Shown here: positions 1 to 61,224 of the stretch, piece after piece
Layout of the letters: each line of letters starts with the position of its first letter
Position numbering within the stretch: position 1 is the first letter of the stretch
Source: a virus
Reading direction: 5' to 3' (one strand)
Virus record (IMG/VR): IMGVR_UViG_3300046001_004063
Location: 11,098-75,097 of that record
DNA: 64,000 bases
Translations under genes and position numbers: made by a program
Notes under the pieces: model-generated
What the model saw: only the letters and a program-made list of their open reading frames with translations
Told to the model about the DNA's origin: nothing
Database searches by the model: none

Positions 1-1212
1 TGTTTTCACTTGTGCAGGATCACCATTTGCTATTTTTACATTGCCGGGCGCAGTAGATGTTTGCGTAATGTTATTTGTAACGTTAGATGGATTTTGCCTT
101 ACGCCTTGTCGGACCAGTTCGGCATTCTGTGCATCTCGTTCAGCGGCAGCGGCTTGTGATTTTTGGCGGTTTGCTTGATACTCTACTTCACGGGCTGCCT
201 CTTGTTTGTCCAACTCTTTTTGCCATTCAGGTGTAGGTTTACCGGTAACTCCGTCATACTTAGCACCCTTACCTGTTGCAGGATCATATGGTTTATCAAG
301 CGTAGATGGTGCCTTCGTTGTAGGTTGCTGTTGTGCAGGTTGTGTTGCGGCTGGTTGTGCGGCAGTGGCCGCCGGCCGTTGTTGTGCAGTTTGTGCGGCG
401 GCAGCTTGGTTAGCTTGTTTAGCTTGTTTAATCTGGTCAGGTTTCATGCCTGGAAATTTAGTTAGGTCTAAGGTACCACCTTTTGCCACTGCACCGGGTG
501 CGGCTTTGGCAGCAACTTGCGGCTTGCCAGTGTTCGGATCATATCCTTGTGGAGCGGCTGCGATTCTTGCTTGTGTAGCCGCATCAGGGACTACTGGTGC
601 CGGAGCGGCCGGAGTAGGTGCTGCCGCCGATTGTCCTGGCTTGGTAAACATACTTTTGGCTTTGTTGACCATGTTGCCTACAAAGCCTTCGTCCATGTCA
701 TCATCTGCTACACCTTGTTGGTCAGCAGTTTTACGACGAGCAACATCGCTCAAGTGTGTGACCACGCCACGTGGATCTTTGGGCTGACCTTGCTTGTTTT
801 TTTCGACTGGGTGCCATTCTGAGTCGTCTTTCCAACTCACAACTTTACCTTGTTTGTCCTTGACTTCTGTGTGGCCTTCTGCTACACCTTGTTGCTTATC
901 GTTGGGGTTGGTAGTCAACATGAACTCTTTGTCTTTGTTGAACAGCTTGGCCTGCATTATACGTGCGGCTTTGTTTGCGGCTGCCTTATCTTGGAATGCA
1001 TAAGGATTGCCTGATTTATCTTTGATCAGTTTGCCATTGAGGCGAATATACCAAGTATTTGATTGTTGATCAAGGCCGTGATTCTCATCATTGGCACCAC
1101 CATCTGCACGATATGCTTGTGAGTCTTTGCCAAAGCCGCTGGTGCTATTGGCAACGTCACGTTCGTATGCGTCACGTGGGTCTCTCATTTCATATAGGTC
1201 ATTTAGGTTCAT
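1..1212 (-). CDS. Ala/Pro/Gln-rich modular putative virion-internal protein (3' end runs off the window)
   Basis: Not in the ORF track. Read manually from ATG at 1212 (TAATG overlap with the upstream stop): MNLNDLYEMRDPRDAY..., open to base 1, with QQGVAEG and QQGVADD linkers. Confidence 0.75.
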   Translation of the reverse strand, partial: MNLNDLYEMRDPRDAYERDVANSTSGFGKDSQAYRADGGANDENHGLDQQSNTWYIRLNGKLIKDKSGNPYAFQDKAAANKAARIMQAKLFNKDKEFMLTTNPNDKQQGVAEGHTEVKDKQGKVVSWKDDSEWHPVEKNKQGQPKDPRGVVTHLSDVARRKTADQQGVADDDMDEGFVGNMVNKAKSMFTKPGQSAAAPTPAAPAPVVPDAATQARIAAAPQGYDPNTGKPQVAAKAAPGAVAKGGTLDLTKFPGMKPDQIKQAKQANQAAAAQTAQQRPAATAAQPAATQPAQQQPTTKAPSTLDKPYDPATGKGAKYDGVTGKPTPEWQKELDKQEAAREVEYQANRQKSQAAAAERDAQNAELVRQGVRQNPSNVTNNITQTSTAPGNVKIANGDPAQVKT

Positions 1213-1911: not shown

Positions 1912-2352
1912 TTATGCCCTCGCGTCCTTCAAATAACTTTTCAGTTGCCACTGATACTTGCCGTGTTGGCTTTGGCGTTCTGCGGCAAAGTTTGCAATGT
2001 CTTCACGACCTTCGGCAGCGGCAGCTTCAAAAACTTGCCGGCTCATGCCAATCATGATCTGTGTATCTGCGAGTAATTCTTCCAGCATCAAACGAGCACG
2101 TGGCACTTTGGTTTGATCCGGTATCTGTGTTAGTTCTAAGAAGCGGCTGAGACTGCCGGGAGCATATTCATCTGTGGTACGAATGTATTCAGCAATGGGA
2201 TCTACTGCTGAATATGAATCTTCGTAGATGTTGGAAAAGAATTCGTGTAGTTCACCAAAGTCAGGTCCTTCTACATTCCAATGAAAATAGTGTGCCTTCA
2301 AATAGTACGAAAACGTACTGGCCAAATAGGTCTTTAGTAAATCACTTAACAT
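1912..2352 (-). CDS. dps: Dps/ferritin-like DNA-protection protein
   Basis: HYFHWNVEGPDFGELHEFF and DPIAEYIR ferroxidase signature. Confidence 0.92.
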   Translation of the reverse strand: MLSDLLKTYLASTFSYYLKAHYFHWNVEGPDFGELHEFFSNIYEDSYSAVDPIAEYIRTTDEYAPGSLSRFLELTQIPDQTKVPRARLMLEELLADTQIMIGMSRQVFEAAAAEGREDIANFAAERQSQHGKYQWQLKSYLKDARA

Positions 2353-2542
2353 TTGTTTTCCTTGCTTTCTTTCTCATACTTTTCGGTGTGTTTGGAAAAG
2401 GGTCATTGGTATATTTACCAGAAAAGAAACTATCGGGATTTCTTGCAATCATGCCACCCACGGGCATGGCCACTGTGGCAACGCTACCACTACTGGTGGC
2501 ACCAACGGACGCATTTTCTTTGATAAATTCCTGAGCTCTCAT
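2342..2542 (-). CDS. small protein with capsid-targeting-like N-terminus (MRAQEFIKE)
   Basis: 66-aa ORF overlapping both neighbours. Confidence 0.7.
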   Translation of the reverse strand: MRAQEFIKENASVGATSSGSVATVAMPVGGMIARNPDSFFSGKYTNDPFPNTPKSMRKKARKTNVK

Positions 2543-2902: not shown

Positions 2903-3610
2903 ATGACTGAACTTATCTATACCCTAATAGTCACACACATTACTATAATCTGTGTTACATTGTATCTACATCGCGGGCAAGCACATCGCGCGGTTACATT
3001 TCACCCTGCGGTGGCACATTTTATGCGCTTTTGGTTATGGGGAACTACCGGCATGGTGACCAAACAATGGGTTAGCACTCATCGTAAGCATCATCGTTTT
3101 ACTGAGCAACCAGGCGACCCACATAGCCCACATGTCTACGGTATATGGACCGTATTTTTTAAAGGTGCATTTTTATATAATCAAGCAACTAAAGACAACA
3201 CAATGGTTCAAGCGTATGGAGCAGGCACCCCAGACGATTGGATTGAACGCAATGTTTATACACCACATAGTCGTCTTGGCATCGTGCTTATGCTTATTAT
3301 TGATCTATGTTTATTTGGATTATGGGGATGGTTAGTTTGGTTAGTTCAGATAGTTTGGATTCCATTATGGGCTGCTGGTGTTGTCAATGGAGTTGGGCAC
3401 TGGTGGGGGTATCGTAATACTAACACCAAAGATTTTAGTCGTAATATAGTGCCTTGGGATTTTTGGGTGGGCGGCGAGCTTTTACACAACAACCACCATG
3501 CGGACCCAGCAAGTCCTAAACTAAGTCGTAAGTGGTATGAGTTTGATATTGGATGGTTATATATTAAACTATTAAGCTATTGTGGATTGGCTACGATCCG
3601 AACTACTTAA
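2903..3610 (+). CDS. delta-9 acyl-lipid/acyl-CoA fatty acid desaturase
   Basis: His boxes HRGQAH, HRKHH, HNNHH plus transmembrane segments. Confidence 0.93.
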   Translation: MTELIYTLIVTHITIICVTLYLHRGQAHRAVTFHPAVAHFMRFWLWGTTGMVTKQWVSTHRKHHRFTEQPGDPHSPHVYGIWTVFFKGAFLYNQATKDNTMVQAYGAGTPDDWIERNVYTPHSRLGIVLMLIIDLCLFGLWGWLVWLVQIVWIPLWAAGVVNGVGHWWGYRNTNTKDFSRNIVPWDFWVGGELLHNNHHADPASPKLSRKWYEFDIGWLYIKLLSYCGLATIRTT

Positions 3611-4180
3611 TTTGCATTTATTATGGTGCCGTTGATAAAATACATTAATAGGCAAGTCTTTTTTACAGCACAGACAACTTATCCTTACAGCTTTTTTTCC
3701 AAAGTTTGGACACAAAGGTCCTTTTGTTCCAAACATAGGATTGTTTTTGCCTGCTTTCTTGGCCCGTTGAACTGTTAAGGTTTCCTCACTGTGGCGCTTT
3801 CCAAAAAATGGGTTAAGCTCACCTTTTAATTTAGCACTTACTTCTGTACGCTTTTTACCAAAGTTTGGATGATTTTTTCCAGAGCGACTTGCTTTTTCTT
3901 CAGTTGACATAATACGGCCACTTATACCGTCTCCACCATCTGTTTTATTTCTAAGTATTCCTGTGCCCGTATCTTTGCGACCATACCATCTTATTAATCG
4001 TCGTTCAATGGCCAGAGAGCCAACTTCAGTTAATCCAGATTCGACAATAATGATTTTAGAACGATCTTTTGGAGGATGTACTTCGCCCTTGCCTTTTATC
4101 CACGCACGTTTGCCTTTTCCTTTTCCGATGTAGTACGGAGTGTTGTCTTTTCTTAGATAGGCATAAACATAGTATTCCAT
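3572..4180 (-). CDS. GIY-YIG-type homing endonuclease with NUMOD3 repeats and C-terminal Cys/His ribbon
   Basis: YYVYAYL...YYIGKG...R...E...N core; NPFFGKRHSEET and NPMFG repeats. Confidence 0.85.
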   Translation of the reverse strand: MEYYVYAYLRKDNTPYYIGKGKGKRAWIKGKGEVHPPKDRSKIIIVESGLTEVGSLAIERRLIRWYGRKDTGTGILRNKTDGGDGISGRIMSTEEKASRSGKNHPNFGKKRTEVSAKLKGELNPFFGKRHSEETLTVQRAKKAGKNNPMFGTKGPLCPNFGKKAVRISCLCCKKDLPINVFYQRHHNKCKLSSSDRSQSTIA

Positions 4181-4234
4181 AATAATACTTATTATATTAT
4201 AGATAAACTTTATTATTCTGGCACGGTTGCGTGA

Positions 4235-4423
4235 CTAACGCAGTTCTTTGATTGAGCCCACGTGCCAATCTTCGATGCGGTACTGTGCTTTGATCATTTG
4301 TCTAGCCACATGTGTGTTGGGAGCCCATACCACTGCATCGACCCAGCCCACATATCCAGGGTTCTGAACACGCACCTTGGCAGTCCATTGTTTTGCACCT
4401 CGGATGATTTCTTTGGCTCGCAT
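4235..4423 (-). CDS. small hypothetical protein (MRAKEII N-terminus)
   Basis: ATG at 4423 overlaps the upstream TGA. Confidence 0.7.
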   Translation of the reverse strand: MRAKEIIRGAKQWTAKVRVQNPGYVGWVDAVVWAPNTHVARQMIKAQYRIEDWHVGSIKELR

Positions 4424-5376
4424 CAGCAGTTCCAACGTCTACGAGCTTTGCAAATGGCCTTGTCCGGAGTCTTGGCACATGAAATATTGTGCATCTTCAT
4501 TTGTCCGCGACTGCGGCTACAATAGCTCTTTCTACGCTTGCTGGCCTTGCTACCACGCTTTAGTTTGCTGGGTTTGGTAGTCACAGCAGTCTTTAGCTTT
4601 GATCCTGGATTCTCTCTGCGATAAGCATTCACAGCCTTTTGACTCATGCCCGCAGTGCGATCTCGTTTGTTGGCCTTTTGCCAGTCTTCGTTCAGTTGCG
4701 AAGTCACAGCAAACACATACAGTTCATCTTCGGTTAGTGATTCTAAGTCCGCCCATACTGCTTCGGCGTCTACACCATTTTGTTCAGCAATACGATCGAT
4801 AATAGATTCAATAAGATCAAACTCTTCTGTCAAGCCTTCATCGGCATTGGGTTTGTCACGGAGTGGGCCGCCTGTGACCCAGGCATCGCAGGTTCTACGG
4901 CTGGCACATTTGAATTTTAAGAACTTACAATAACCCAGCTCACCTGCATCAATAACGCCGGCTGCATCCGCAGGAGAGTCACTGTCGATGCCTTGAGCAA
5001 TGCAGTCCAAGGTTTCTTCTCGTATGTCAAACGCCGCACAGTTGCCGCATAGGCTTTGTTTGGCTTCCTCTGCTGAGTCCAAGTTCCACTCATCAACTTT
5101 TTTCATCCAGAACTTGGTGTTGGGCATGTCTGGGTTCAGCGGCCCATAGCCATAGTCATTGATGGCTTTTTGTCTGTTCTTGAGATTGAGTGTAATGTCT
5201 TGTGTAGCAGGAGGGCACTTGTTGTCAGAGTCTTCTGCTATGCTTTCAGCAGGCACACAGTTGTTTACACGTACTCCGCCCTTCATTTTAGTTTTAGGGT
5301 TGCCAATCTTTTTGCCTGTCCAGCACTTGGGATCCAAGCGGACTTTTTCTTCTACAATGAATTCGTTAGCTCTCAT
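4423..5376 (-). CDS. modular putative internal protein: Cys-pair domain, HiPIP-like Cys domain, acidic domain, basic Cys-containing domain
   Basis: MRANEFIVEE start; CGNC...GYC...C..W; linkers SIAED, GLTEE, QLNED. Confidence 0.7.
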   Translation of the reverse strand: MRANEFIVEEKVRLDPKCWTGKKIGNPKTKMKGGVRVNNCVPAESIAEDSDNKCPPATQDITLNLKNRQKAINDYGYGPLNPDMPNTKFWMKKVDEWNLDSAEEAKQSLCGNCAAFDIREETLDCIAQGIDSDSPADAAGVIDAGELGYCKFLKFKCASRRTCDAWVTGGPLRDKPNADEGLTEEFDLIESIIDRIAEQNGVDAEAVWADLESLTEDELYVFAVTSQLNEDWQKANKRDRTAGMSQKAVNAYRRENPGSKLKTAVTTKPSKLKRGSKASKRRKSYCSRSRGQMKMHNISCAKTPDKAICKARRRWNC

Positions 5377-7238
5377 TTTTTCTTACCTCGTCGCATATTT
5401 AGTTGCCACTGTGCCATCCTGCGACGCTCGCCTGTGCTGGATTGAGCAATCTTTTCCAGTTGGCCCAAGGTGGCTTTTTTAGGAATCCCTACTCTGCGAC
5501 TCAGCCCTTTGCGTCCAGGATTTTTACCATCCGCAAAGTTTTCATCTATCTCTTGTTCCCATACATTTTGTTCAGGACGATGCTTGTCCCAAAATCCAGC
5601 ACCTGCATCAGTTTGCTGACCACTGCGGCGTATTTTATAGCCTTTGCTTTTTACATAGTCATACATTGTAGCGGCAATACCCTGACCTTGATAGCGTTCT
5701 TCTACTTCTAAATCTTGCGGCATTAAGTAATCGCCTTCTTGAACAAATAATACATGTCCAAGTTCGCGGCCGCCTGGCATCATGGCCGTTATTAAAATTT
5801 CGTCATCTTCTTTTTCCAAGGAGATTTCTATTCCATTATAATGTTCCATGCCTTCCGCCACACCTTGTTCTACGCTTTCACTTTTGTATGTGGCTCCAGT
5901 GCAGACCCAAGCAGGGCCTGTGTATCCTTGAGGGAATGCCTTCAAATGCTGAATAGTTCTATGCCAACCTTCAATCAAATCATAACCGTTTGCTAATTTA
6001 GCAACAATAATTGGTTCCGCACTCACACCCTTTTGCTGAATCATTTGTGATTGCAGTGCGTGTCTTTCAGCATCTTTTGGAACTTGAAAAGGATTAGAAC
6101 TACCACCTTCACGACTTTGAATCATACGCTGAGTTTTTGGTGTAAAGATATCTAGTGTGATGGGAATCTTAGTCAGTGTCCATTTACAATTACCAAAGTC
6201 TTGTTGTATTTCATCTAAAAAATCTTCTAAATCTTTTTGATTTTTATTACCTTTTGCCTTGGCATATAAAAAATCTCGTTGCACATATTCAGGCCATTGT
6301 GTTCTTGGAAATTTAGACTGAACCCAGGTCCAGAGTTGGTCACGATACTCACTTAGTGAGCCTTCCGCCACCGGTTGTTTTATTCTACTTAATTCGTATA
6401 TAACTTTGTTGCCAGTGTCTGCACGAAAAGCTCTGAAACCCCATGCTCTAGCATAACGCTGTACTAAACTATCATATAGTCTAGCTCTACTTTGTGCGTT
6501 TTGTCCTTGTTCAACTTCTTTACTGGCAGTAAAGGTTATTCTATTAGGAGTATACTTTTTAATAAACGTTTGTATAGCACTTAACACAGTGGCAAACACA
6601 CGTTGTTGATCGCCTTCACCTGTGACTTCTTGGCTGTTGTTTCTATAGAATTCAACACTCCATGCTTCCTCTTTTGAATCTTTACTAAATCCCTTGTTAA
6701 ACATAATACTTAGAAAAGTTCCGTCATCTAATCGTGCTATTGCATCCACATCACCAAAGTCACCCTTTTCCCATCGAAGTAGTTCATACGGTTTATCAAA
6801 TGCTTCTGTCAGACCCTGTGCAATTGCTTCACGGGCCTGGCGTTCATTCTCTACTTTGAATTTTTGTAAGGCTTGATTATCATTAATTTGTCTACGGTCC
6901 AATTGTTGCCAAATTGACAAGTCAAATTTGAGAAGTTTTCGTTCTACTGCTTGTGCAAAACTAAGTTCATTATTACCTCGGCCTTGCCAATTAGGTTTCA
7001 TGCCCCACACAACTGATACAGAATTATCGTAATCGTTGGACAGTGTAATTCTCATACGTTCGCCATAAAATACGTATGTACGTCCTTGCCAAGTAAAGTA
7101 AAGATCACCATTACTTGTTTGTCCCGTGCTCCAGCCATGCTTTTTTTGCAGAGCACTAACTGCGGCTTGATCTGCATTTTCCGCCACACCTTGCCGAGTC
7201 TGTGCAACAACTTCTGTTATAAATTCACTAGCTCTCAT
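5373..7238 (-). CDS. modular putative internal polyprotein including ParB/Srx-like and GNAT acetyltransferase domains
   Basis: MRASEFITE start; EPIIV...LIEGWHR (ParB-like); VEERYQGQGIATMY (GNAT motif A); QGVAE-type linkers. Confidence 0.78.
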   Translation of the reverse strand: MRASEFITEVVAQTRQGVAENADQAAVSALQKKHGWSTGQTSNGDLYFTWQGRTYVFYGERMRITLSNDYDNSVSVVWGMKPNWQGRGNNELSFAQAVERKLLKFDLSIWQQLDRRQINDNQALQKFKVENERQAREAIAQGLTEAFDKPYELLRWEKGDFGDVDAIARLDDGTFLSIMFNKGFSKDSKEEAWSVEFYRNNSQEVTGEGDQQRVFATVLSAIQTFIKKYTPNRITFTASKEVEQGQNAQSRARLYDSLVQRYARAWGFRAFRADTGNKVIYELSRIKQPVAEGSLSEYRDQLWTWVQSKFPRTQWPEYVQRDFLYAKAKGNKNQKDLEDFLDEIQQDFGNCKWTLTKIPITLDIFTPKTQRMIQSREGGSSNPFQVPKDAERHALQSQMIQQKGVSAEPIIVAKLANGYDLIEGWHRTIQHLKAFPQGYTGPAWVCTGATYKSESVEQGVAEGMEHYNGIEISLEKEDDEILITAMMPGGRELGHVLFVQEGDYLMPQDLEVEERYQGQGIAATMYDYVKSKGYKIRRSGQQTDAGAGFWDKHRPEQNVWEQEIDENFADGKNPGRKGLSRRVGIPKKATLGQLEKIAQSSTGERRRMAQWQLNMRRGKKK

Positions 7239-7239
7239 A

Positions 7240-10200
7240 TCAACTCACAATTGGTAGCACAGTAACATCTGCACCATGGCTGTAGCCATTGTCGGTCAAC
7301 CATTGTGTGGCCACACGGTTAGCATCACGCTGTTGATTGCCTATGCCGGAGAATCGATGCAGTTCATTGCCATCAGAATCTACAATCTTCCAAGCACCTG
7401 TAAATGTACCTGGTGTGGCTCGTTGTTGTGCTAGGTCTGCGGTGGATCCTGCAGCAGGTGTAGATGCCGTTTCTTCTGCAGGTTCCACTTGATAGTTGCC
7501 ATCCCAGTTGTATTCTCTAGCCCACACTGCGGCAAGTTCGTTGGCCTTGGCTCTGGTATTAACTGCAGGACGGAAACGATATACTTCGCGGCCTAACCCG
7601 TCAATGATTTTCCATTGTCCAGTTGGGCTTGTGGCAGCACGACCTGCGGCTATTGGCATGTCTATATCAACAATTCCCACTCCACCGACGGTACGTATGC
7701 CAAACATACGTTCAGCCTGACCTCGTTGTAGGCTATGTGGACCGTGTTCAATGTAATCATTCAGGCGAACCAATGCCTCTTCATCATTGGTGATTCCATC
7801 AGCATCCTCTACTGAGTTGCCAGTTTGTTTGTTGTAAATTTCGTAGCGAACAGTTTTTGCAGATTGTTCATATGGACGCAATGGCTTTGCAGTCATATCA
7901 TTAGCTGTGGCCCAATCTGGATATTCTGCACGACCTTTTTCAATGGCTTCTTCTTTGCTGGTAGCAACAACTTCAACACTGGCTCCATATCCAGGACGAC
8001 CTACACTCCACCAGTATTTTTCACCGCCTGTTGGATCTTTCTTCAACTTGCGTTCCAATTGTGCCTGCTTAACAAAACTACGCAAGGCAGCCGCAGGAAT
8101 CTTGCCTGCTACGTATTCACTGAAGTACTTGATAGTGTCAGAACCTTTGTTGTCCTGTGTCAACAACTTGTACAGTTTCTTCAAGTATTCTTCGCGATAC
8201 ATTTCAGGATTCAGTGCCGCACTCATGGCCACTGTGAAACGCAACAGGGTGTTTTCAATTTGATCAAAGTTTTGATCCAACCAATCGCCGCCAGGGCTAC
8301 GGAATTCAATGTGTCCATCTTTGGTGTTGATACTGGTGTACTTGCTGGTCACACCCGAATGAATGGCTTTACTTGCCAAACTATCCAAGTTGCCTTTCAT
8401 TTTGTTTAGTAACCGTTCTGCTTCGTCGGGCTTTTGCCGCACCTGATCACGTACCATTTTTATTGCTGGCTTGGCATAGGTATTGCCAGCACGTCCAAAC
8501 AAGTCCAGTACATACTCATCGCCCATCAGCAGGGCTAACTTTACAAAGTCCAAGTTCTCTCTGCTGTAGTTGGGCACAGATATGTTGATGTGCAGGCCTG
8601 TTGAATCATTGGTGTAGCAACCATATACCTTGGCCCACTTTTTAACCTTGTTCAAGTCACTTAATATATCGTCAATGGGCAAGGGTGGGCTCACAAACTC
8701 CAGGCCTACATCATCGCTGTCATCGGCTTCTAAACTGCCATCAGGTTCCACAATATAATGTTGTGCAGTAGGGCTAGGTCTTGTTACCCCGCCACTGTGG
8801 TAGTTGCCGCTGGCTCGAACGTCACGTCCTATTGCATCTTGGAATTCGTTAGCAACATCTTCGATACTGGCTTCGCCACCACCCTGTTGTTCAAAATGGG
8901 GCCAACTCATGTTGTATTCACGTTCAATGTCTGACATGCGATTCAAATCTCGATCTTCTAGCCATTCTGATTCTAGGTCTGCATTCTGATTAAAATCTTC
9001 TTGTGCAGATTCACGTGCCGCATCGTACCAATAGTTGCCATAGCTTTCTTCTATTACTTTTTCTGTGGCATCGCGATATGCTTGTTTGTCTGCTACATAT
9101 TCGCCGTCTACGCCGGGCTCTGTGCCTAGTATTTCTGCAATTTCATCTGCACTGGCGTTTTCTTTAAGGTAATTGTAGACAAATTCTGATTCGTCGCCGT
9201 CCCATCGAGTATCAAACGACTCACTTAACCATTCGTAGTATTCATCCTGCATCCGGTCACGCAGTCTAGTGACATCGCCGCGGCTGTTGTAATCGCCATC
9301 GTAGAAGAAATCATAAGCCTCCTGTATGCTACTAACACCTTCATCGTAACTGTAATCTGCTTCCATTTGACCGTCGTCATCGCCGCCTTCAACATTGGGC
9401 ACAATCATTTCAAATTCCATGCCGGCAATGGCACCGGTCTTGGCAGCTTCGCGACGTAGGCTGCCTGTGCTCATGTTGATTTCAAACAGCATGTCATCAA
9501 TGCCTTCGGCAATTAAATCTTCATCAGTTTTGGGTTGATGTTTGTCTGTGACATCTTCGCCACCTTCTACATCAGGATCGATGTCGTGTGTTTTTAGTCC
9601 CAGGCGTTTGAACTGTTTCAAGTAGCCCTGTTCTGCTTCATCGCTGGGGAAAACAACAACTGTTTGTGGTGGACCTTGATTGTAATTTTCCGGTTTGGCA
9701 TCATCCAAGTCAGATATGTCCATGCCCAACTGATACCAGTCAGTCAGGTCTTTAACATCAATTTTGGTTGTGCCTGCGGGAAATTGTGGTGGAAACTCTG
9801 GACCTGTTGCTTCTTGATTGCCCAGTTCATCTTCACGTTCTCCGGGCACTTGACTCAAGGGTGTGGAGTTGTATCCATAACTTTTGTTGGACGTACGGCC
9901 AGTTTCTTTAAACTCGCGCAGTGCATTGGCCAAGCCGGTCATTAACAAGCCCGGATGTCCTTGACTGTCAGTTTTTAATCCCAACTTGTTTGCTTCTTTA
10001 CCCACTGCACCCGGACGCACATCTTGTGTCAGAGCCATGCTAAAGCGTGGGTCTCGAGCCTGCTTCTTTGTGGGAATGTATCCTGATGCTTCTGCTAACT
10101 CATCTGCTTGCCCGGCAGCAAAATGTTCCGGGTGTAGTTTGGCATAGTCACGCATGAGTACGCCGGCACGAGCATTGGCTTCGTTTTCGTATGGACTGCC

Positions 10201-11304
10201 AGTTTCCCCTGCATCTGGTCCCATATCACTGCCATCACGTTCGTGTTGATGCTTGTGTGTGAGTTCATGAGCCACTGTGCGCAACACATCCATGATGTGT
10301 CGCTGACCCCAGGCCACTTCTAACATTTTTTCATCGTCGTTATACCGGCCAAATGTTTTGTGCCGCACAGGCCATTGTGGATCCTTGCGCAAGCGAATGC
10401 GTGGCATCTGTTCAATCGTTAATTCTGCAACACAAAACTCCACAAAGTCTGTAAGTATGTCTTCGTCTGATTTGGGTTCTTCATTCAAGAACATCTGTGT
10501 TGTGGGACTTACTCCGTCCCATGAAGCGCCAACATCTTCTGTGGCTTTGAATCCGTAGGTGAATCTAAATGGTTTATCAATTTCAATCGTGCGTTCTTTA
10601 AGACTCAGTGCTCGATCTTTGGCAGCGGTTCTGGCATCATACAGTTTTTGTATCACACCCTGCGACCGCAACATCTTGTACGCAATGTTTTCTGGACCCA
10701 GTTCACCGTGCTGATCAAGACCAGCTTGACGCATCTTTTTAATCTTGGCAGCAGTGTTGGTCAAGCGTTTTAGACTGCCAGATTTTACTGCTGATTCAAT
10801 GCGATGTTTGATCACATCGTACTTGCTCTTTACCGCAGTGTCGTTTACTGTGGAACGTTTCTTAAGTGGAATGTTGATCCAGTCGTTGTTCAGCACACTG
10901 AATATGCCTTGACTGACTGCTGATTTGTTGGCGTTTTCCACATAGAGTTCTACATCGTAGCCACCAATTTTAATATTGTGTGTTTCGTTGTACTGAAACT
11001 TTTTAGCATCAAACAGCTCGCGATACACTTCACTCACATCTGCTTCAGGCAAATCAACTACCAGGTGCAGGTCAATATCACTATGTGGAGTATATGTATA
11101 ACCAGCATTGCTGCCGGACAAGGTAATGTCTTTGAGGTTTAGATCTGTAAGTCCAAGACTCTGTTTAAAGTCTTCGGCAATTTGTAACAGTTTAGCCCGC
11201 ACCTGTGGGCGCATTTTATTAGCCTGCCAGATACGTGGATTTAACTGTTCGTTGAATTTCACAGCGTCGGCGAGGTTATAGGAATCTAATTCAGAAATAT
11301 TCAT
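7240..11304 (-). CDS. polyvalent protein: Pol-beta nucleotidyltransferase + zincin-like metallopeptidase + amidoligase (COOH-NH2 ligase type 2) + C-terminal repeats
   Basis: GSNAG...SDIDLH; HELTH; GMEFE, DGSL, EFVSP, STGLHIN, KYTSIN, IEFRSPGG. Start moved to the ATG just after the TAAATA box. Confidence 0.8.
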   Translation of the reverse strand: MNISELDSYNLADAVKFNEQLNPRIWQANKMRPQVRAKLLQIAEDFKQSLGLTDLNLKDITLSGSNAGYTYTPHSDIDLHLVVDLPEADVSEVYRELFDAKKFQYNETHNIKIGGYDVELYVENANKSAVSQGIFSVLNNDWINIPLKKRSTVNDTAVKSKYDVIKHRIESAVKSGSLKRLTNTAAKIKKMRQAGLDQHGELGPENIAYKMLRSQGVIQKLYDARTAAKDRALSLKERTIEIDKPFRFTYGFKATEDVGASWDGVSPTTQMFLNEEPKSDEDILTDFVEFCVAELTIEQMPRIRLRKDPQWPVRHKTFGRYNDDEKMLEVAWGQRHIMDVLRTVAHELTHKHQHERDGSDMGPDAGETGSPYENEANARAGVLMRDYAKLHPEHFAAGQADELAEASGYIPTKKQARDPRFSMALTQDVRPGAVGKEANKLGLKTDSQGHPGLLMTGLANALREFKETGRTSNKSYGYNSTPLSQVPGEREDELGNQEATGPEFPPQFPAGTTKIDVKDLTDWYQLGMDISDLDDAKPENYNQGPPQTVVVFPSDEAEQGYLKQFKRLGLKTHDIDPDVEGGEDVTDKHQPKTDEDLIAEGIDDMLFEINMSTGSLRREAAKTGAIAGMEFEMIVPNVEGGDDDGQMEADYSYDEGVSSIQEAYDFFYDGDYNSRGDVTRLRDRMQDEYYEWLSESFDTRWDGDESEFVYNYLKENASADEIAEILGTEPGVDGEYVADKQAYRDATEKVIEESYGNYWYDAARESAQEDFNQNADLESEWLEDRDLNRMSDIEREYNMSWPHFEQQGGGEASIEDVANEFQDAIGRDVRASGNYHSGGVTRPSPTAQHYIVEPDGSLEADDSDDVGLEFVSPPLPIDDILSDLNKVKKWAKVYGCYTNDSTGLHINISVPNYSRENLDFVKLALLMGDEYVLDLFGRAGNTYAKPAIKMVRDQVRQKPDEAERLLNKMKGNLDSLASKAIHSGVTSKYTSINTKDGHIEFRSPGGDWLDQNFDQIENTLLRFTVAMSAALNPEMYREEYLKKLYKLLTQDNKGSDTIKYFSEYVAGKIPAAALRSFVKQAQLERKLKKDPTGGEKYWWSVGRPGYGASVEVVATSKEEAIEKGRAEYPDWATANDMTAKPLRPYEQSAKTVRYEIYNKQTGNSVEDADGITNDEEALVRLNDYIEHGPHSLQRGQAERMFGIRTVGGVGIVDIDMPIAAGRAATSPTGQWKIIDGLGREVYRFRPAVNTRAKANELAAVWAREYNWDGNYQVEPAEETASTPAAGSTADLAQQRATPGTFTGAWKIVDSDGNELHRFSGIGNQQRDANRVATQWLTDNGYSHGADVTVLPIVS

Positions 11305-11326
11305 GATTGTAATATTTAGCGCAAAT

Positions 11327-11354
11327 AAAAAAGCCACTGGGTAAAGTGGCTTTT
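11327..11354 (-). terminator. rho-independent terminator, possibly bidirectional
   Basis: AAAAGCCACT-GGGTAA-AGTGGCTTTT perfect stem with T/A tracts. Confidence 0.8.
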
Positions 11355-11377
11355 GGATTGGCTATTAAACTAGCAGT

Positions 11378-12283
11378 TTATTTCTTTTTACTGGCTTTTT
11401 TACTCGATGCCAACACTTTAGTTTCGGCTGGCGCAGGCACGGCAGCGGCTCTAGCGGCAGCCTGTCTTGCTTCCACCATTGGCGTAACATCAGTGATCAG
11501 TTTCTCTTGTGCTTCGTGAGCAAATGTGTACGTGCCGGTGTGACGCAATAAAACACGTTTGTCAACCCAAACCCGACCGCCCAAGTCACGCCAGTTTTCA
11601 CAGAATGTCCAGTCTTCCGAATAGTAGCGATTTTCACGCACTGCTGTGTCAAAGTAGGTTTTCATGTAGGGATTGAGTTCTACTGGCAGGCCAATGTCGT
11701 TGATAAACGGCTTGGTTGCAGGGTGTGCATTCAACTTGTCAAACACATGACGCTTGACCAAGAAGAAGCCTGTGCCTGTTTTAGACACTTCTTGTAAGCC
11801 GTCAGCGCCTTCTTCTGCACCGTCAAATCCGTTGACGCACCACTTGATTGGAAGTGACTTCATTGGGTACAATCCGCCAATAACATCCACGTCACGATTT
11901 AACATGACCAACAGGTGCCATGGCTCCCAGCCAATGTCCGCATCAACGAACATCAAGTGTGTTGAATCAGGATTGGCCAAGAACTTGGCAACCATTGTAT
12001 TACGAGCACGACTGATCAAACTTTCGTTTGTGAGTGTTTCCATGGTCCAATCAATGCCCAATTGACGTGCAGTATTTGACCATTTGATGTAGCTCATAAA
12101 CGTTGACTCAGTCAACATACCGCCATAACATGGCATACAAATGTGAACACGGGTGGTTTTCAAGTAGTCAACATTTACTTGAATTTGTTGTTGTTGCCCG
12201 CCCACTTGTTGTGGTGTTGAGGGTGTTTCTGTGGTGGGTACAACATCTGGCATTTTGCCGGTTACGTTTTGTTCGTCAGCCAT
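11378..12283 (-). CDS. GT-A fold glycosyltransferase-like protein
   Basis: SLISRARN, FVDAD (DxD), GTGF, SEDWTFC motifs. Confidence 0.78.
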   Translation of the reverse strand: MADEQNVTGKMPDVVPTTETPSTPQQVGGQQQQIQVNVDYLKTTRVHICMPCYGGMLTESTFMSYIKWSNTARQLGIDWTMETLTNESLISRARNTMVAKFLANPDSTHLMFVDADIGWEPWHLLVMLNRDVDVIGGLYPMKSLPIKWCVNGFDGAEEGADGLQEVSKTGTGFFLVKRHVFDKLNAHPATKPFINDIGLPVELNPYMKTYFDTAVRENRYYSEDWTFCENWRDLGGRVWVDKRVLLRHTGTYTFAHEAQEKLITDVTPMVEARQAAARAAAVPAPAETKVLASSKKASKKK

Positions 12284-21519: not shown

Positions 21520-21797
21520 TTAACGGCTCCTTCAAATATATTCTTTTGTATCTGATACCACTGTTGCCAAGCATCTGCTTTCACAGCGCACTCATAGTAT
21601 GTGCCATAGTTGATGGTTACTGTTCTTGCAACATCACTTAACACAGGTGCATCTTTTAATTTTTCTAAATTGGGACAACGTTCTAAAGAGTTTAGCCCAG
21701 GCGGTTCAGGAAACCGTGCAGTAACTGGTACTGCGGTTGAGCATCCTGCAAGTGCGACAAGTACGGCCAAACTAACTACAACACTTTTGCTACTCAT
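21516..21797 (-). CDS. o-spanin (Rz1-like lipoprotein)
   Basis: lipobox LAGC, Pro-rich, next to the endolysin. Confidence 0.75.
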   Translation of the reverse strand: MSSKSVVVSLAVLVALAGCSTAVPVTARFPEPPGLNSLERCPNLEKLKDAPVLSDVARTVTINYGTYYECAVKADAWQQWYQIQKNIFEGAVK

Positions 21798-23836
21798 TTC
21801 CTATACCTTTTACTTTCGGGTGCCATTCCCCAGGATGCGTCTTCGGCTGCCACTGCGGGTGGTTTTGCTGTGGCCGTCTGGTATCCAGAGAAACCAGTTT
21901 TACTAAAGTTTGTAACAGGCGCGGCAGATTTCTTTGGTGCCAATAACCCACCGTAGGTTACCTTAGACGGTGCACCTGCTGTGGTAGATGTTGCTTGAGG
22001 AGCCGCTGGTTTAGCAACTGGTGCGGCTGGTGCGGCTGGTGCGGCTGGTGCGGCTGGTGCGGCTGGTGCGGCTGGGTTAGCAACCGGAGTCGCTGGGTTA
22101 GCACCCGGTACACCAGCAAACGGTATCTTCATTGTTCCGTAAACTTGCTTGACAGAAGCAGATGGCACACCTGCATCTTGCATCACTTTGGCCACAGCCT
22201 CACTGTCAGTTGGGTTGCCTGCTTTCTTCCATGCTTGTAATAGTTTGTCAGCAGTGATTTTGGTTGTCAAGTTAGCGCCTTTGGTCTTGGCCCAGTCAAC
22301 TGCTGAACCAACTGCTTTACTGGCAGCACCTTTGACACTATCCCAGATTCCTTCGTCAAGTTTGCGTTGACGTTCGAGGATCTTGCCAATCACCAAATAG
22401 ATTTGGCTTTCAGTTAAATCGATACTTTCATTGACGCCGGCTGCTTTTGCTACAGCCGCTTTACCTGCGGCCATTGCCGCTTGCTTAGCCGCTTGGATCA
22501 TATATGGACTGTTGCCTGCTCGCGCCATTCCCTTAGCTAGTGTCTGTTGAAATTCAGGAGTAGCCATTATTTGATCTATAGTGATTCCAGAAACATTACC
22601 AGCAAAATCACTCACTGCGCTAGTTGCAACATTAGAGGCAGCATTTGCGGCAGTACCTACCGCTGAGCCGCCACCGTCTTGTAGTTGTTGCATTAATTGG
22701 GCACGAACTTGCTTTGTTAAAAGGTCTTTGCCCATCTGTGTTAGACCTTCACCGGTAGCACCTACAATGTTATCTGTTAAATCCAATACATCATTATAAC
22801 TGTTTACCCCATTAGCGGCAATAAGTTCTTTCACTGAGTCATTTGCGGCTTTAAATGCGGCATCTTGTGCGGCTCTAGCCGAAGCAACACTACTAGCGGC
22901 TGTACTTACATCTGGTGTGCCTTTAATCAAGTCGCCAATCTTACTAGCACCGTAAGCCATTGCGCCTGTTTTAGCACCTGAGTATGCGGCACTGGAGAAC
23001 TTCTCACCTTGCAACAACTTGTCTACCAGTTTGAACAACCCAACAGCGGCTGCACCACCAACTCCCGCGGTGCTGATACCAGCGGCAGCAATCAATGCTG
23101 AATAGATTAAACTCTGTGCAACAGGATGCTTCTTAGCAAAGTCTCTGTACTTTTGTACATATTTCATAGCACCCTGGTCGCCACCGGTTGCTTGCTTTAG
23201 TTTCTCGGCGGCACTATCATACATGGCATCAACGTTCTTGATGGGACCAGAGTTCTGTACTTTGGTCTTTAGTTCTTCCCATGCTTGACCAACAGCACTG
23301 GCAGCATCTTTGCCTTGGCCAATCAAGGTACGATTGCCGCCTGCGGCAGTGGCACCTTGTTCTACTTGTTGGAAGATTTGATTAATTTGATCAGCAGTTA
23401 GTTGTGCTTCAGAAATTCTTTGTCCAGCATTTTCCCACAACTTGTATGTGCGTGTTTCTGTAATCATTACTTTTGTTGTGCGATTGCTCTCACTTACTTT
23501 CTTGGGCAATGATTTATAATTTTGTTTACGATCAGCACCGTGAAATTCCTTGGCAACGTCCGGACTGATACCAACTTTCCGGGCAAACTTGGGATTGTGT
23601 GCGGCTGCTGCCATTGTGCGGAACTGTGCTTGGCTGGTGCTCTTTTCATCTAGTTGTTCTTCAGCTAGGCCGCCTGCTTGTGCATCTTGGTCGGCCATTC
23701 GAACAGTTTCTGCGTCACGTCGTTGATCAGCCGCTTGTGATTGCCAACTGTCGGGATTGTCGGCTTGATCTTCAACCATGGCGGCCCTGGACGCCGCTAC
23801 TCTAGGTGTTTCGTTTATAAATTCATTAAATTTCAT
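21794..23836 (-). CDS. large Ala-rich putative internal/ejection protein
   Basis: MKFNEFINE start; LAE/LDE/VSE/VNE linkers; hydrophobic Gly/Ala segment; PAA repeat. Confidence 0.7.
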   Translation of the reverse strand: MKFNEFINETPRVAASRAAMVEDQADNPDSWQSQAADQRRDAETVRMADQDAQAGGLAEEQLDEKSTSQAQFRTMAAAAHNPKFARKVGISPDVAKEFHGADRKQNYKSLPKKVSESNRTTKVMITETRTYKLWENAGQRISEAQLTADQINQIFQQVEQGATAAGGNRTLIGQGKDAASAVGQAWEELKTKVQNSGPIKNVDAMYDSAAEKLKQATGGDQGAMKYVQKYRDFAKKHPVAQSLIYSALIAAAGISTAGVGGAAAVGLFKLVDKLLQGEKFSSAAYSGAKTGAMAYGASKIGDLIKGTPDVSTAASSVASARAAQDAAFKAANDSVKELIAANGVNSYNDVLDLTDNIVGATGEGLTQMGKDLLTKQVRAQLMQQLQDGGGSAVGTAANAASNVATSAVSDFAGNVSGITIDQIMATPEFQQTLAKGMARAGNSPYMIQAAKQAAMAAGKAAVAKAAGVNESIDLTESQIYLVIGKILERQRKLDEGIWDSVKGAASKAVGSAVDWAKTKGANLTTKITADKLLQAWKKAGNPTDSEAVAKVMQDAGVPSASVKQVYGTMKIPFAGVPGANPATPVANPAAPAAPAAPAAPAAPAAPVAKPAAPQATSTTAGAPSKVTYGGLLAPKKSAAPVTNFSKTGFSGYQTATAKPPAVAAEDASWGMAPESKRYRK
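22018..22075. repeat. 9-bp tandem repeat (CTGGTGCGG), about 6 copies, encoding (PAA)n
   Basis: directly visible. Confidence 0.9.
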
Positions 23837-34575: not shown

Positions 34576-34865
34576 CTGGCTGCGGGCACAGGAGCATCCG
34601 CTTTGACATCAATTGGATGTCCATTTTCGTTAAACAGTCGTTCGATGATGTTGGCATAGTGCTGGTAATAATAACTCACAACAGTGTCCCACACTCTAGG
34701 AACTTGTACACCGTTCATGCTACATTTTTCGACTTTTAATTTTTTAAAATCTAAAATTACACTGGCAGTTTGAATATCGCTGGTTTTTAATCTTGTGGCC
34801 ACAGTCATAACTTCGTCAGTTTGACCATTTGCTTTTTTGTAATAGGTAAGGATTAGATATCTCAT
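34572..34865 (-). CDS. hypothetical protein
   Basis: 97-aa ORF; TAAATA 4 nt before ATG. Confidence 0.7.
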   Translation of the reverse strand: MRYLILTYYKKANGQTDEVMTVATRLKTSDIQTASVILDFKKLKVEKCSMNGVQVPRVWDTVVSYYYQHYANIIERLFNENGHPIDVKADAPVPAAS

Positions 34866-34872
34866 GGTGTAT

Positions 34873-35406
34873 TTAAATGATTATTGGAGTCTTGTCAAAA
34901 ATTAAAAAACAATCGCCGTTTAGCGAATTTGTTATAAATGGGCGCAACATTTGATATGTCAACTGCATCTGGTAATTATTTGCCATGTGCAAAGTCAGTT
35001 GGGCAAATGCCTGTTCTGGACTCAATGCTGTTCTATTCCAGTTAATAAAGATAGAATTAATACCAAGAATTAAACGTCCACCGGGTAATAGATTATCACA
35101 CAAATGGCCTAACTGGTGTGCGTACTCAGCTATAGAGTTATACCGCAGTTCAAATACATTCAAAGCTAGAATGTTATTAAACGAATTTACCGCGTCGGGA
35201 CGTTGATCCAGCAAGTTTTCGTGTATTGTTAAATTAGGAATCCAGTTTTGAAATCTAGCACCAAAAGAATTCCATGCAAGTGTGGTTCCGGGTATAATAA
35301 ATTTAGTAACAATTCGATCTCGTGGCAATAGTTGATCACTATGTCGATAGTGATACCACACTGCATCCCAGTGATTGATCATTGACCGAAGTTTAGTTTT
35401 GTTCAT
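34873..35406 (-). CDS. hypothetical protein, remote methyltransferase-like
   Basis: LLPGGRLIL motif; likely start MNKTKLR. Confidence 0.5.
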   Translation of the reverse strand: MNKTKLRSMINHWDAVWYHYRHSDQLLPRDRIVTKFIIPGTTLAWNSFGARFQNWIPNLTIHENLLDQRPDAVNSFNNILALNVFELRYNSIAEYAHQLGHLCDNLLPGGRLILGINSIFINWNRTALSPEQAFAQLTLHMANNYQMQLTYQMLRPFITNSLNGDCFLIFDKTPIII

Positions 35407-59027: not shown

Positions 59028-59965
59028 GTAAATTCAAGTACATTAGATATCAAAGTTGTATTATCAATTCTTGTTTTCATTTTTTCAAACATAGACGGAT
59101 CGCGTTCAACTAAGATGCAATGTCTATTTCGGTTATTACAAGCAACACCAGTGGAACCGCTTCCTGCAAATGTATCTAATACTGTATCTCCTTGGTTGCT
59201 TAACAATTCAATGAAGTATTCTAATATTTCTGTAGGTTTTTGGGTAGGATGTATTTTTCCCTTACCTAGTCCACCACTATACGTTATAGTATTTGGAATA
59301 ATACATTGTATTAATCCTTCGTCGCTTTTCTTTCGATCTGCTAGCATTCGAGTTGCTTCTTTTTTTGCCTCATCAAAAACCTTGTCAAGATTGTCAAGAT
59401 TATCTGCGTCTTTAATCATTTTATAAACAATACTACTAACCTTGTCTGCTGATGCGTATCGTTCAACAATTGAACCTTTAGTAGTATCTGCATTAAAAGT
59501 TCTAGAGCCCTTTGGTTTAATACCAAATAACACATACTCGCAGGCACTCACCGGATTAACCTGGCGATTAAACGGAACTGCCGCAGGCTTTTTCCAGGTC
59601 CAAACACGTTTGGGCTCAAACCCTGCGTTCTCCATTGCAGTCCAAAGATAACTTACATATTGGTCGCTAATGAATATGGCAAAACTACCACCTTTGCGGA
59701 TTTTTTTAAACCAGACATTAGCCCAGCCGTTAATTTGTTGCAGGAATTCGTCGTGCCCCACATCATCCCAATCTTGTTCAAAACTTTCGCTAAACTTTTG
59801 ATTGTGAATAGTTGTTTTATTTTTACCAGTTTCTTTGTCAATCCAAACTGGCTGAGCACCATCTTCACTAATATTATATGGTGGGTCTGTCAACAGTAGG
59901 TCAATTGAACCATCTGCAATTTGATCAGACACGGTTAACATGTCGCCGTTAATTGTTGTAATCAT
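59024..59965 (-). CDS. N4/N6 DNA methyltransferase (beta class)
   Basis: DPPY before HPTQKP and DTFAGSGST. Confidence 0.92.
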   Translation of the reverse strand: MITTINGDMLTVSDQIADGSIDLLLTDPPYNISEDGAQPVWIDKETGKNKTTIHNQKFSESFEQDWDDVGHDEFLQQINGWANVWFKKIRKGGSFAIFISDQYVSYLWTAMENAGFEPKRVWTWKKPAAVPFNRQVNPVSACEYVLFGIKPKGSRTFNADTTKGSIVERYASADKVSSIVYKMIKDADNLDNLDKVFDEAKKEATRMLADRKKSDEGLIQCIIPNTITYSGGLGKGKIHPTQKPTEILEYFIELLSNQGDTVLDTFAGSGSTGVACNNRNRHCILVERDPSMFEKMKTRIDNTTLISNVLEFT

Positions 59966-61224
59966 TTCGTTTCCGATACTCTAATACTAGGCCAATTGGC
60001 CCACGCTCCGCCTGCATTACTATGATAGTGTGTAATCCAGGTATCAACATCTTTAAAAAATATTTCAGTTGTTTTAATATTTACGCTATCAATACTTATG
60101 TTAACAAACTTTTCAGTTGAAAACAACGGTTTCATTACACTACTAACTTCAGTAATAGTTTTTTTATCTACTTGCCCCCATCGAGTCATAAGTGTGATAA
60201 TCGAAAACCAAATTGGATTAAGACTGTACTCTTGTTCCCAACGTCGACGCCAATCGACTGCTTGATTTTTCTTTGGTACCCCGACTCTAGGAAATAAGTC
60301 TCCATTTAACAACTGATAAAATTTATCATATGACCCAGGAACTCTAATAAATTTTTCTAAATCTTGAACTGTTGTTCCTCCAATTAGCAAGACAATTTCA
60401 TTAATCCACGGGCAAATCTTTGCTGCATATTTAAAATAATCTTCCCTATTATGTTTAGCGTGTGCTAATAAAAAGTTAGAAATATCAGACTGTCCAGTCA
60501 ACCCTGTTAGATACTTTACTAGATTAAGTTTGCCACCACCTTGAGGCCCTTTTACGCTGATAATCTTACCGTCTCTCCAGTAGTCTACAACAATTTCGTT
60601 TGACTTTATTGGAAACTTGATTTCGTTTTTTGCTACCCCAGCAAACAGATCTTGATACGCACAAAGAACTTCTCCAAAGTCGCAGATAATTGAATTTAAG
60701 TCTTTTGATTTCATTTTAAGAAAATCTGCAGACAGTGGTGCGGCAGTTTCAACATTGAGTAAAAGACTAACAACCGCATCAAACAGTTTAGTATCAATGC
60801 CACATTCAACCGTTAATCCGTTAATAATATCTTGACGGAATTGAGTAATAGCACCTGGTGAATATACCTTGCCACCAAGACCGATATTGTCAGGAGAGAA
60901 TGCCTTGCGTGGTTTTTCTGTAGCCATTGCTTTAAGCAAAGTAGAATAGTGTGTTCCATTCCAGAAAACTAAAAACCCACAATTTTTGTATTTTGTTCCG
61001 CCACTGGCGACGGAAGCCTTTATAACTGTTCCATTTAATGGAGCAATAAGTTTTTCAAGTTTTTGTTGCGAATCAATAGCAGAAGATTTTGTAAAAATCA
61101 AACGTTTTCCGTTGGTTAATGGAGCATCAAATCTTTTTTTGCTGTCAACTTGTTCGTCTAATTCGGCTGCCAAACTGGGATATTCCTTGCAAAAGATTTT
61201 TTTAAATAATTTTTTATTTGTCAT
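59962..61224 (-). CDS. putative PD-(D/E)xK restriction-endonuclease-like protein
   Basis: DFGEVL...VDY...ISVK; coupled to the MTase; AT-rich. Confidence 0.55.
   Translation of the reverse strand: MTNKKLFKKIFCKEYPSLAAELDEQVDSKKRFDAPLTNGKRLIFTKSSAIDSQQKLEKLIAPLNGTVIKASVASGGTKYKNCGFLVFWNGTHYSTLLKAMATEKPRKAFSPDNIGLGGKVYSPGAITQFRQDIINGLTVECGIDTKLFDAVVSLLLNVETAAPLSADFLKMKSKDLNSIICDFGEVLCAYQDLFAGVAKNEIKFPIKSNEIVVDYWRDGKIISVKGPQGGGKLNLVKYLTGLTGQSDISNFLLAHAKHNREDYFKYAAKICPWINEIVLLIGGTTVQDLEKFIRVPGSYDKFYQLLNGDLFPRVGVPKKNQAVDWRRRWEQEYSLNPIWFSIITLMTRWGQVDKKTITEVSSVMKPLFSTEKFVNISIDSVNIKTTEIFFKDVDTWITHYHSNAGGAWANWPSIRVSETK

Follow-up and report, generated by a model that had tools for sequence, protein, structure and literature searches.

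A linker fixed as DNA separates exchangeable modules within single genes of predicted giant T4-related lake phages and resembles a head-protease junction

The DNA analysed here is a 64,000-nt stretch (hereafter the window) of a 75-kb IMG/VR virus record, of which the completeness was estimated by CheckV at 22%. On its minus strand lies a modular gene encoding 621 amino acid residues (aa), in which a short leader is followed by five modules and five junctions. Three of these junctions carry the tripeptide VAE, and the nature of these linkers, both as peptide and as DNA, is the subject of this report. The gene is organized as follows.

5373-7238, minus strand: the 621-aa modular gene, with leader, five modules and five junctions, as judged from the list of open reading frames (ORFs) and from module homologies
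7212-7238, minus strand: leader MRASEFITE at the N-terminus, similar to the capsid-targeting sequence of T4 (CTS; described in PMC9026906)
7179-7193, minus strand: linker 1, QGVAE, canonical CAA GGT GTG GCG GAA
6819-7178, minus strand: module A1, 120 aa, without family match
6804-6818, minus strand: degenerate junction QGLTE (CAG GGT CTG ACA GAA); a leader ending in ITE takes this position in the related loci L120 and L023
6378-6803, minus strand: module A2, DUF6934-like, 96.3% identical to its counterpart in L120, with the match ending at the junctions
6363-6377, minus strand: linker 2, QPVAE (CAA CCG GTG GCG GAA)
5868-6362, minus strand: module B, 165 aa, weak ParB_N match
5853-5867, minus strand: linker 3, QGVAE, canonical word
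5553-5852, minus strand: module C, weak GNAT acetyltransferase matches below the cut-off
5541-5552, minus strand: degenerate junction EIDE, preceding the NFADG tail
5376-5540, minus strand: basic C-terminal tail module (NFADGK...RRGKKK)

Within this gene the match to DUF6934 was above the cut-off, and those to ParB_N (E = 0.19) and GNAT (E = 0.002) stayed below it. The original prediction, made from the letters of the window alone, stated that all three VAE linkers use the codons GTG GCG GAA. This was confirmed, in frame and on the minus strand: GTGGCGGAA is located at 5853-5861, 6363-6371 and 7179-7187, and each copy reads V-A-E in the 621-aa ORF within a 17-mer (7177-7193, 6361-6377 and 5851-5867). 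The window contains four copies of GTGGCGGAA against 0.26 expected; the fourth (60996-61004, minus strand) lies out of frame inside a 420-aa ORF (59962-61224) and is probably there by chance. The proposed location of every linker between unrelated domains held for those at 6363 and 5853 (DUF6934, ParB-like and GNAT-like domains), but the one at 7179 separates the leader from the first module. The two degenerate junctions, QGLTE and EIDE, had escaped that prediction.

As the long relatives of the window are contigs of 262 to 343 kb that have in common a ClpB-like ATPase (52-73% identity), the window is taken to be a fragment of a giant phage genome, from an uncultured lake phage related to T4. 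The stretch was recovered almost completely, at 86-96% of the sampled words, from at least 24 metagenome runs of lake water. For comparison, 26 related loci were gathered by protein similarity, independently of the linker word, and a wider set of 147 loci was then used, in which L029 and above were picked by the exact word. All these data are metagenomic contigs. By megablast of the region against cultured phages no match was detected, and tblastn gave only weak, uninformative matches of DUF6934 type within uncharacterised genes of KVP40-like Vibrio phages.

The codons of the linker are far from those expected. In the window GCG makes up 8.4% of Ala codons and GTG 28% of Val codons, and the probability of GTG GCG GAA for a given VAE is 0.019; in the relative G003, GCG is 6.6% of Ala codons. 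In the loci collected by protein similarity, the exact 15-mer CAA GGT GTG GCG GAA was present in 22 of the 32 distinct QGVAE contexts, against an expected frequency, given QGVAE, of 0.004, and VAE in ordinary contexts was written GTT or GTA GCA GAA. Likewise, in the 300-kb genome of G003, GTGGCGGAA was found at all five [QH]GVAEG sites and at none of the 26 other VAE sites. The 17-mer CAAGGTGTGGCGGAAGG gave at least 120 exact matches in IMG/VR, and 182 of the 183 exact copies examined are in the QGVAEG frame inside long ORFs. In each of four long relatives the 12-mer is found three to four times, always on the coding strand and in the genome region that also contains the Clp gene. The 345 distinct junction contexts from the 147 loci give the peptide consensus [KE]-Q-G-V-A-E-G, with third codon positions fixed at 86-96% and no conservation in the flanks. 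The linkers occur in 214 distinct ORFs, with up to eight linkers each and a median module length of 95 aa. The linker DNA is thus conserved far beyond codon usage, as the original prediction had supposed.

Could selection for the peptide alone have given this result, the identity of DNA coming from recent descent of the linkers or from codon preference? The silent sites of module B are unsaturated, and linkers inherited together with this module could look conserved by descent. Synonymous conservation inside the module B alignment alone was in fact unexceptional, so that homologous linkers taken by themselves are weak evidence. When the two deep clades of this module were compared, however, synonymous identity of the linker codons was 0.78 (4- and 6-fold sites) and 0.92 (2-fold sites), against 0.52 and 0.71 in conserved codons of the module (P about 0.01). 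The strong evidence for constraint at the DNA level is the occurrence of one and the same word at non-homologous junctions: hundreds of pairs of modules without homology to each other have the same 15-mer between them, and its codons are disfavoured, GCG being 7-8% of Ala codons. As a control, 61 distinct leaders of the form MRAx[ED]F[ILV]xE, a motif about as long as the linker, were taken from the same genes. Here the peptide is equally conserved and the silent sites drift freely (Glu, GAA 37 and GAG 20; Phe, TTT 41 and TTC 20), indicating that peptide selection alone fails to explain the fixed codons of the linker. This explanation is largely refuted by the codon tests, and we regard it as very improbable.

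Exchange of modules in frame at the linker, the second element of the original prediction, was supported by comparison of relatives. Near-identical relatives differ by gains, losses, replacements and a tandem duplication that end there. In an all-against-all comparison of loci (matches of at least 93% identity and at least 300 nt), 109 of the 151 internal match ends were no more than 10 nt away from a linker word, where 1.4 would be expected, and many of the remaining 40 were at diverged linkers (QGMAE, GIAE, QPVAE and QGLTE) or at the leader. The flanks of L005 and L015 agree at 99.9% and 97.4% identity, and the two loci are told apart by a 466-nt module placed between leader and linker. The match of L012 with L062, at 98.7% identity over 5.8 kb, runs to the final base of a linker, beyond which two modules are exchanged for two others; the right-hand crossover of this pair falls in ordinary diverged homology. 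Between L087 and L129 the difference is one against two tandem copies of a 201-nt unit composed of module plus linker. In L120, syntenic with the window, the corresponding gene is of 213 aa and consists of leader, A2 and tail only; A2 is far closer to that of the window than the surrounding genome, which is 74-88% identical, and the match ends at 6375 and 6809, both at junctions.

Module B illustrates the resulting variety. Among the 26 loci the ORFs that contain it range from 277 to 1933 aa and its neighbours differ entirely, and linkers were always at its bounds. Module B of the window is itself a mosaic, the N-terminal half grouping with the L003/L018 clade and the C-terminal half with the L011 clade, indicating that recombination takes place also inside modules where homology exists. 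The most mobile modules include a small one that contains cysteine and starts with KWS[KE]KYK[RS]SI[ND]C, and zinc-ribbon-like ones (CPHCGG...), found in L014, L016, L090, L114, L130, L133 and others. The KWS[KE]KYK and zinc-ribbon-like modules recur with high frequency behind leaders, behind canonical linkers and behind degenerate x-x-E junctions.

As only metagenomic contigs were available, such architectures might be chimeras joined during assembly at the repeated 17-mer. A repeat of 17 nt is below the usual k-mer size of assemblers. The same architectures recur in independent metagenomes (L001/L002, L004/L005/L026, L006/L008/L009, L012/L013 and L020-L022), which argues against chimeric assembly, and the coverage of the window's own stretch in 24 lake-water runs argues in the same direction. 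We consider this explanation hardly credible. Within lake-metagenome contigs the joins have short sides, and of these only the one from 10095 to 6379 was used; it links two junctions, with a reconstructed reading of ...SRIKPVVAE then ASGYIP, and lends weak support to exchange. No excised circle was seen in contigs from the lake-water runs, where uncovered stretches carry no meaning.

The 621-aa gene is surrounded by further genes with leaders or junctions.

1-1212, minus strand: 404-aa gene, cut by the end of the window, containing the leader-like MNLNDLYE and, twice, the variant word CAACAAGGTGTAGCAGA
2342-2542, minus strand: 66-aa gene, leader MRAQEFIKE followed at once by short cargo
4423-5376, minus strand: 317-aa gene, leader MRANEFIVE, C-terminal DUF6321
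7240-11304, minus strand: polyvalent-type protein of 1354 aa, with nucleotidyltransferase, HExxH motif and amidoligase
21794-23836, minus strand: 680-aa gene, leader MKFNEFINE, part of which matches PHROG families annotated as virion structural protein

The two copies of CAACAAGGTGTAGCAGA reported for the first of these genes are exact, at 704-720 and 878-894, and are the only ones in the window (0.00 expected). The copy at 878-894 reads QQGVAE-G; the other reads QQGVAD-D and is therefore not a VAE linker as had been described. The 66-aa gene reads MRAQEFIKE then NASVGATSSGSVATV, which is similar to the N-terminal arm predicted for the mature major capsid protein of G003 (YLKE then NASAGSTAAGNIATL); its product may be a small decoy or capsid-arm mimic with a shared context of the cut site. 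In the polyvalent gene the amidoligase match is above the cut-off and the nucleotidyltransferase match below it, and HExxH was read from the translation. This gene most likely starts with ATG at 11304 (MNISELDSYNLADAV, in agreement with L016) rather than with GTG at 11337. Upstream of it (11304-11375, minus strand) are a terminator-like hairpin and T-run, then CTAAATATTACAATC adjoining the ATG, without Shine-Dalgarno sequence. Within the array of leader genes, the region 3557-4426 holds a free-standing GIY-YIG endonuclease-like gene (3572-4180) and a small ORF (4235-4435); both are missing from the otherwise syntenic L120, which fits a mobile homing-endonuclease insertion. In four lake metagenomes the summed contig depth of the window bins 4401-4800, 6401-6800, 9201-9600 and 11601-12000 is about 2- to 5-fold above that of their neighbours, which suggests that the modules concerned (DUF6321 tail, DUF6934 module and others) are common to other phages of the same lakes.

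The same modules are often preceded by non-canonical junctions with ordinary codons, or by leaders. The polyvalent gene has DELAE (10090-10104) where its homologue in L016 has QQGVAE, with module B, QGVAE and a further module inserted at this position; the 317-aa gene has NADE then GLTEEF (4837-4848), and canonical QGVAE is found there in L120; the NFADG tail, behind EIDE in the window, stands behind QGVAE in L020 and behind a leader in G003. The requirement for the peptide is therefore loose. The variants of the word each depart singly from one canonical form, without significant sharing inside ORFs, which is consistent with junctions born canonical by crossover and then decaying slowly.

These observations bear also on a role of the fixed nucleotides in RNA or translation, such as a pause at GCG on domain boundaries or a Shine-Dalgarno-like G-rich run, or as a protein-binding site, recombination being incidental. 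Five to six successive codons are fixed, one of them rare, and on inspection the word is rich in purine and G; that variants are single steps from one form would suit this explanation as well. The unconserved flanks, however, are hard to reconcile with any conserved RNA structure for lack of room, start codons do not follow the word at any constant distance, and the unrelated codons of DELAE, NADE, EIDE and the leaders before the same modules show that the word is dispensable for making the protein. A role of this kind is improbable.

As to the way in which exchange takes place, the original prediction compared the linker to an integron working inside one ORF. This part was not borne out. A tyrosine recombinase (PF00589) was absent from the record and its four long relatives (G000-G004), by a search in which the positive control was found in 14 of 14 genomes, and inspection of the 17-mer revealed no attC-like inverted repeat, self-complementarity or hairpin. 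The left-hand crossovers were found also in the leader or in ordinary homologous flanks. A gene for a RecA/UvsX-like protein is present in three relatives. The lack of integrase and inverted repeat, together with partner crossovers in leaders and ordinary homology, points to general recombination at a short in-frame patch of homology.

A dedicated system acting on the word and making it truly integron-like or hotspot-driven, be it by a site-specific recombinase, by a homing endonuclease or other nuclease, or by a stimulator of Chi type, might be suspected from the extreme conservation of the word and the precision of the breakpoints, and from the presence of the mobile GIY-YIG gene in the array of the window. 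This endonuclease is not conserved with the arrays, however, and the missing integrase, the lack of inverted repeat and the partner breakpoints of the same events speak equally against a system of this type, which we regard as quite improbable.

In the explanation by general recombination, which we prefer, the DNA role of the linker would be that of a word of 15-18 nt (CAA GGT GTG GCG GAA GG), identical from junction to junction and read in one frame throughout. Relatives infecting the same cell, or paralogous genes, would cross over there, since the word is the sole homology between otherwise unrelated modules. Such crossovers would insert, delete, replace or duplicate whole modules and leave frame and junction intact. 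New junctions would be born canonical, by which the word is kept common despite its rare codons, and old junctions that no longer exchange would decay to any [VLIM]-x-E with ordinary codons. Conservation of the word as DNA and the breakpoints at it are shown by the data; as for the direction of cause, the word may have been selected for shuffling.

The peptide role was approached through the leaders. In T4, cleavage by gp21 takes place behind L/I-x-E, and internal proteins carry the CTS as an N-terminal propeptide of 10 residues (PMC9026906, PMC3012670). A CTS-like leader of about 10 residues ending in L/I-x-E is present in the window in MRASEFITE, MRANEFIVE, MRAQEFIKE and MKFNEFINE, and M-x-x-x-[ED]-[FLI]-[FLI]-x-E stands at the beginning of nearly every ORF that bears linkers. 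Module starts were located by BLAST (622 before de-duplication, 599 distinct contexts). The canonical linker precedes the module in 356 of the 599 contexts and another sequence ending in Glu in 151, among which 128 have V, L, I or M at P3; in most of the remaining contexts a Glu is found no more than three residues away, suggestive of shifts of the alignment register. In 20 of the 622 starts the module is directly behind a leader. Both G002 and G003 encode homologues of gp21 (Peptidase_S77) and Gp23 above the Pfam cut-offs, the protease and capsid genes lying in a cluster of portal, core-protein, protease, scaffold and capsid genes; the gp21 homologue of G003 is encoded at 34640-35272. The N-terminal arm of the G003 capsid protein has the sites ILE|N and LKE|N, and small core proteins of G003 begin with MILNEFF... 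and MNKFEQLIEYVIND. The linker thus plausibly resembles a cut site of the gp21-type head protease, V/L/I/M-x-Glu.

QGVAE would then be one form of a hydrophobic-x-Glu junction between independently folding cargo modules. A prohead protease of T4 type would most likely remove the leader and cut behind every junction Glu inside the prohead, freeing small proteins that travel with the DNA.

A recombination role without cleavage by the prohead protease has to be set against this. The proteins might remain intact as multi-domain polyvalent proteins with QGVAE as a flexible spacer, or might be processed in another way, for instance by the metallopeptidase-like HExxH motif of the 1354-aa neighbour, which also has nucleotidyltransferase and amidoligase matches; embedded metallopeptidases have been proposed as processing enzymes of polyvalent proteins (Iyer et al., PMC5512222). 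Six ORFs end 0-3 residues past a linker, where cutting would be purposeless, and a protease gene was not found in the record of the window. On the other hand, Glu at P1 and V, L, I or M at P3 are kept even in the degenerate junctions, a better fit to a Glu-specific protease than to a passive spacer. The same modules also occur free-standing directly behind CTS-like leaders, and gp21 homologues exist in G002 and G003. We consider this alternative unlikely.

We therefore return to a linker with two jobs, a shuffling patch as DNA and a protease junction as peptide. This combination is in our estimate probable, and several observations weigh against it. The record of the window, a fragment at 22% completeness, lacks a prohead protease gene. 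Neither G001 (342,865 bp, estimated 99% complete) nor G004 gave a match to the gp21 or gp23 families. The exact T4 late-promoter consensus TATAAATA is neither enriched nor near the leader and linker genes, and late expression of the array is thus unsupported. The Val at P3 of the linker differs from the classical L/I of T4. Cleavage is plausible from the motif and from the gp21 homologues of relatives; both cleavage and packaging are predictions. As to exchange, a recombinase would have only a short patch of 17 nt to act on, and breakpoints could therefore cluster in part through selection of products that are in frame and functional, and not because of a hotspot. No significant sharing of non-canonical variants was seen inside ORFs (P = 0.10), and local gene conversion was not demonstrated. 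Ascertainment by the exact word inflates some counts for loci L029 and above; unbiased sets are about 69% canonical.

With regard to G001 and G004, both have a ClpB-like protein (68-70% identical) and linker words, and no match to the G003 protease was found in them either. Their head-gene block is either missing from the contigs or too diverged.

A bolder form of the same idea is that the 17-nt word is a selected recombination signal, an evolved cassette junction within ORFs, possibly aided by a nuclease or hotspot, which would serve a lineage of giant phages as a population-wide, plug-and-play generator of injected effector repertoires, every junction doubling as the protease site by which the new module is freed. 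This we hold to be doubtful.

If the two-job linker is correct, giant T4-related lake phages would reshuffle hundreds of small cargo modules without ever breaking frame or processing sites. The cargo modules are probably early-acting or anti-defence proteins, and the fast diversification of capsid-delivered effector repertoires would find an explanation. It would also link T4 capsid-targeting propeptides with polyvalent proteins. The grammar of leader and linker flags candidate injected proteins in metagenomes and sets domain limits without structure prediction, and it suggests a natural design for loading phage capsids with multiple proteins.

The closest known relatives of this arrangement are the internal proteins of T4, IPI, IPII, IPIII and Alt, which similarly combine a short leader ending in I-x-E with diverse, fast-evolving cargo and basic tails; a gp21-type protease and gp23-type capsid protein, as in T4, are encoded by two of the four long relatives. 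The leader MKTYQEFIAE of T4 may be compared with MRASEFITE of the 621-aa gene. T4 cargo, however, consists of single units with one leader each, whereas here one ORF strings together several unrelated modules, the internal junction between them being repeated and, unlike the leader, fixed as DNA.

Polyvalent proteins of phages and conjugative elements (Iyer, Burroughs, Anand, de Souza, Aravind 2017, PMC5512222) likewise carry many unrelated effector-type domains per polypeptide in mosaic architectures, with predicted delivery accompanying DNA and processing into units; such architectures were seen here in the five modules of the 621-aa gene and the varied partners of module B. ParB-like, GNAT, metallopeptidase and amidoligase-type domains may also be common to both; among the matches obtained here amidoligase is above the cut-off, and ParB_N and GNAT are below it. 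In that paper processing is assigned to embedded metallopeptidases, and its main text never uses the word 'linker'. A literature search for the motif QGVAE returned papers on alpha-synuclein only, and in the searched literature no description was found of a DNA-fixed coding junction that joins whole unrelated domains in many genes and is also a probable protease site.

In the polymorphic toxins of bacteria (VENN in CdiA, orphan cassettes), a conserved peptide and DNA junction is the place where C-terminal cassettes are exchanged by homologous recombination. The VENN-type junction is single in each protein and leads to a terminal toxin with its immunity gene, unlike the multi-junction chain of phage capsid cargo proposed here. 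Short motifs within the ORF also part variable segments in the T-even gp38 adhesins, where exchanges occur within or near glycine-rich motifs (PMC3157838). Those motifs form the structural core of a single domain between short hypervariable loops, but QGVAE parts whole unrelated domains, is an apparent protease site and joins hundreds of modules across many genes. In T4-type genomes, PeSL cassettes (PMC2839356) are similar in that a short repeated motif flanks modules, namely non-essential genes, which recombination inserts, deletes or replaces between close relatives. PeSLs are intergenic, composed of a sigma-70-like promoter and a terminator stem-loop, and the units that they shuffle are whole genes; the QGVAE word lies in coding sequence, lacks a hairpin and shuffles domains in frame. 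The hallmark of motif-mediated shuffling, a short conserved DNA motif flanking variable segments with breakpoints in or near it, was observed here, and if our interpretation is correct, such shuffling as seen for PeSLs and the gp38 glycine-rich motifs would extend to whole domains in one ORF.

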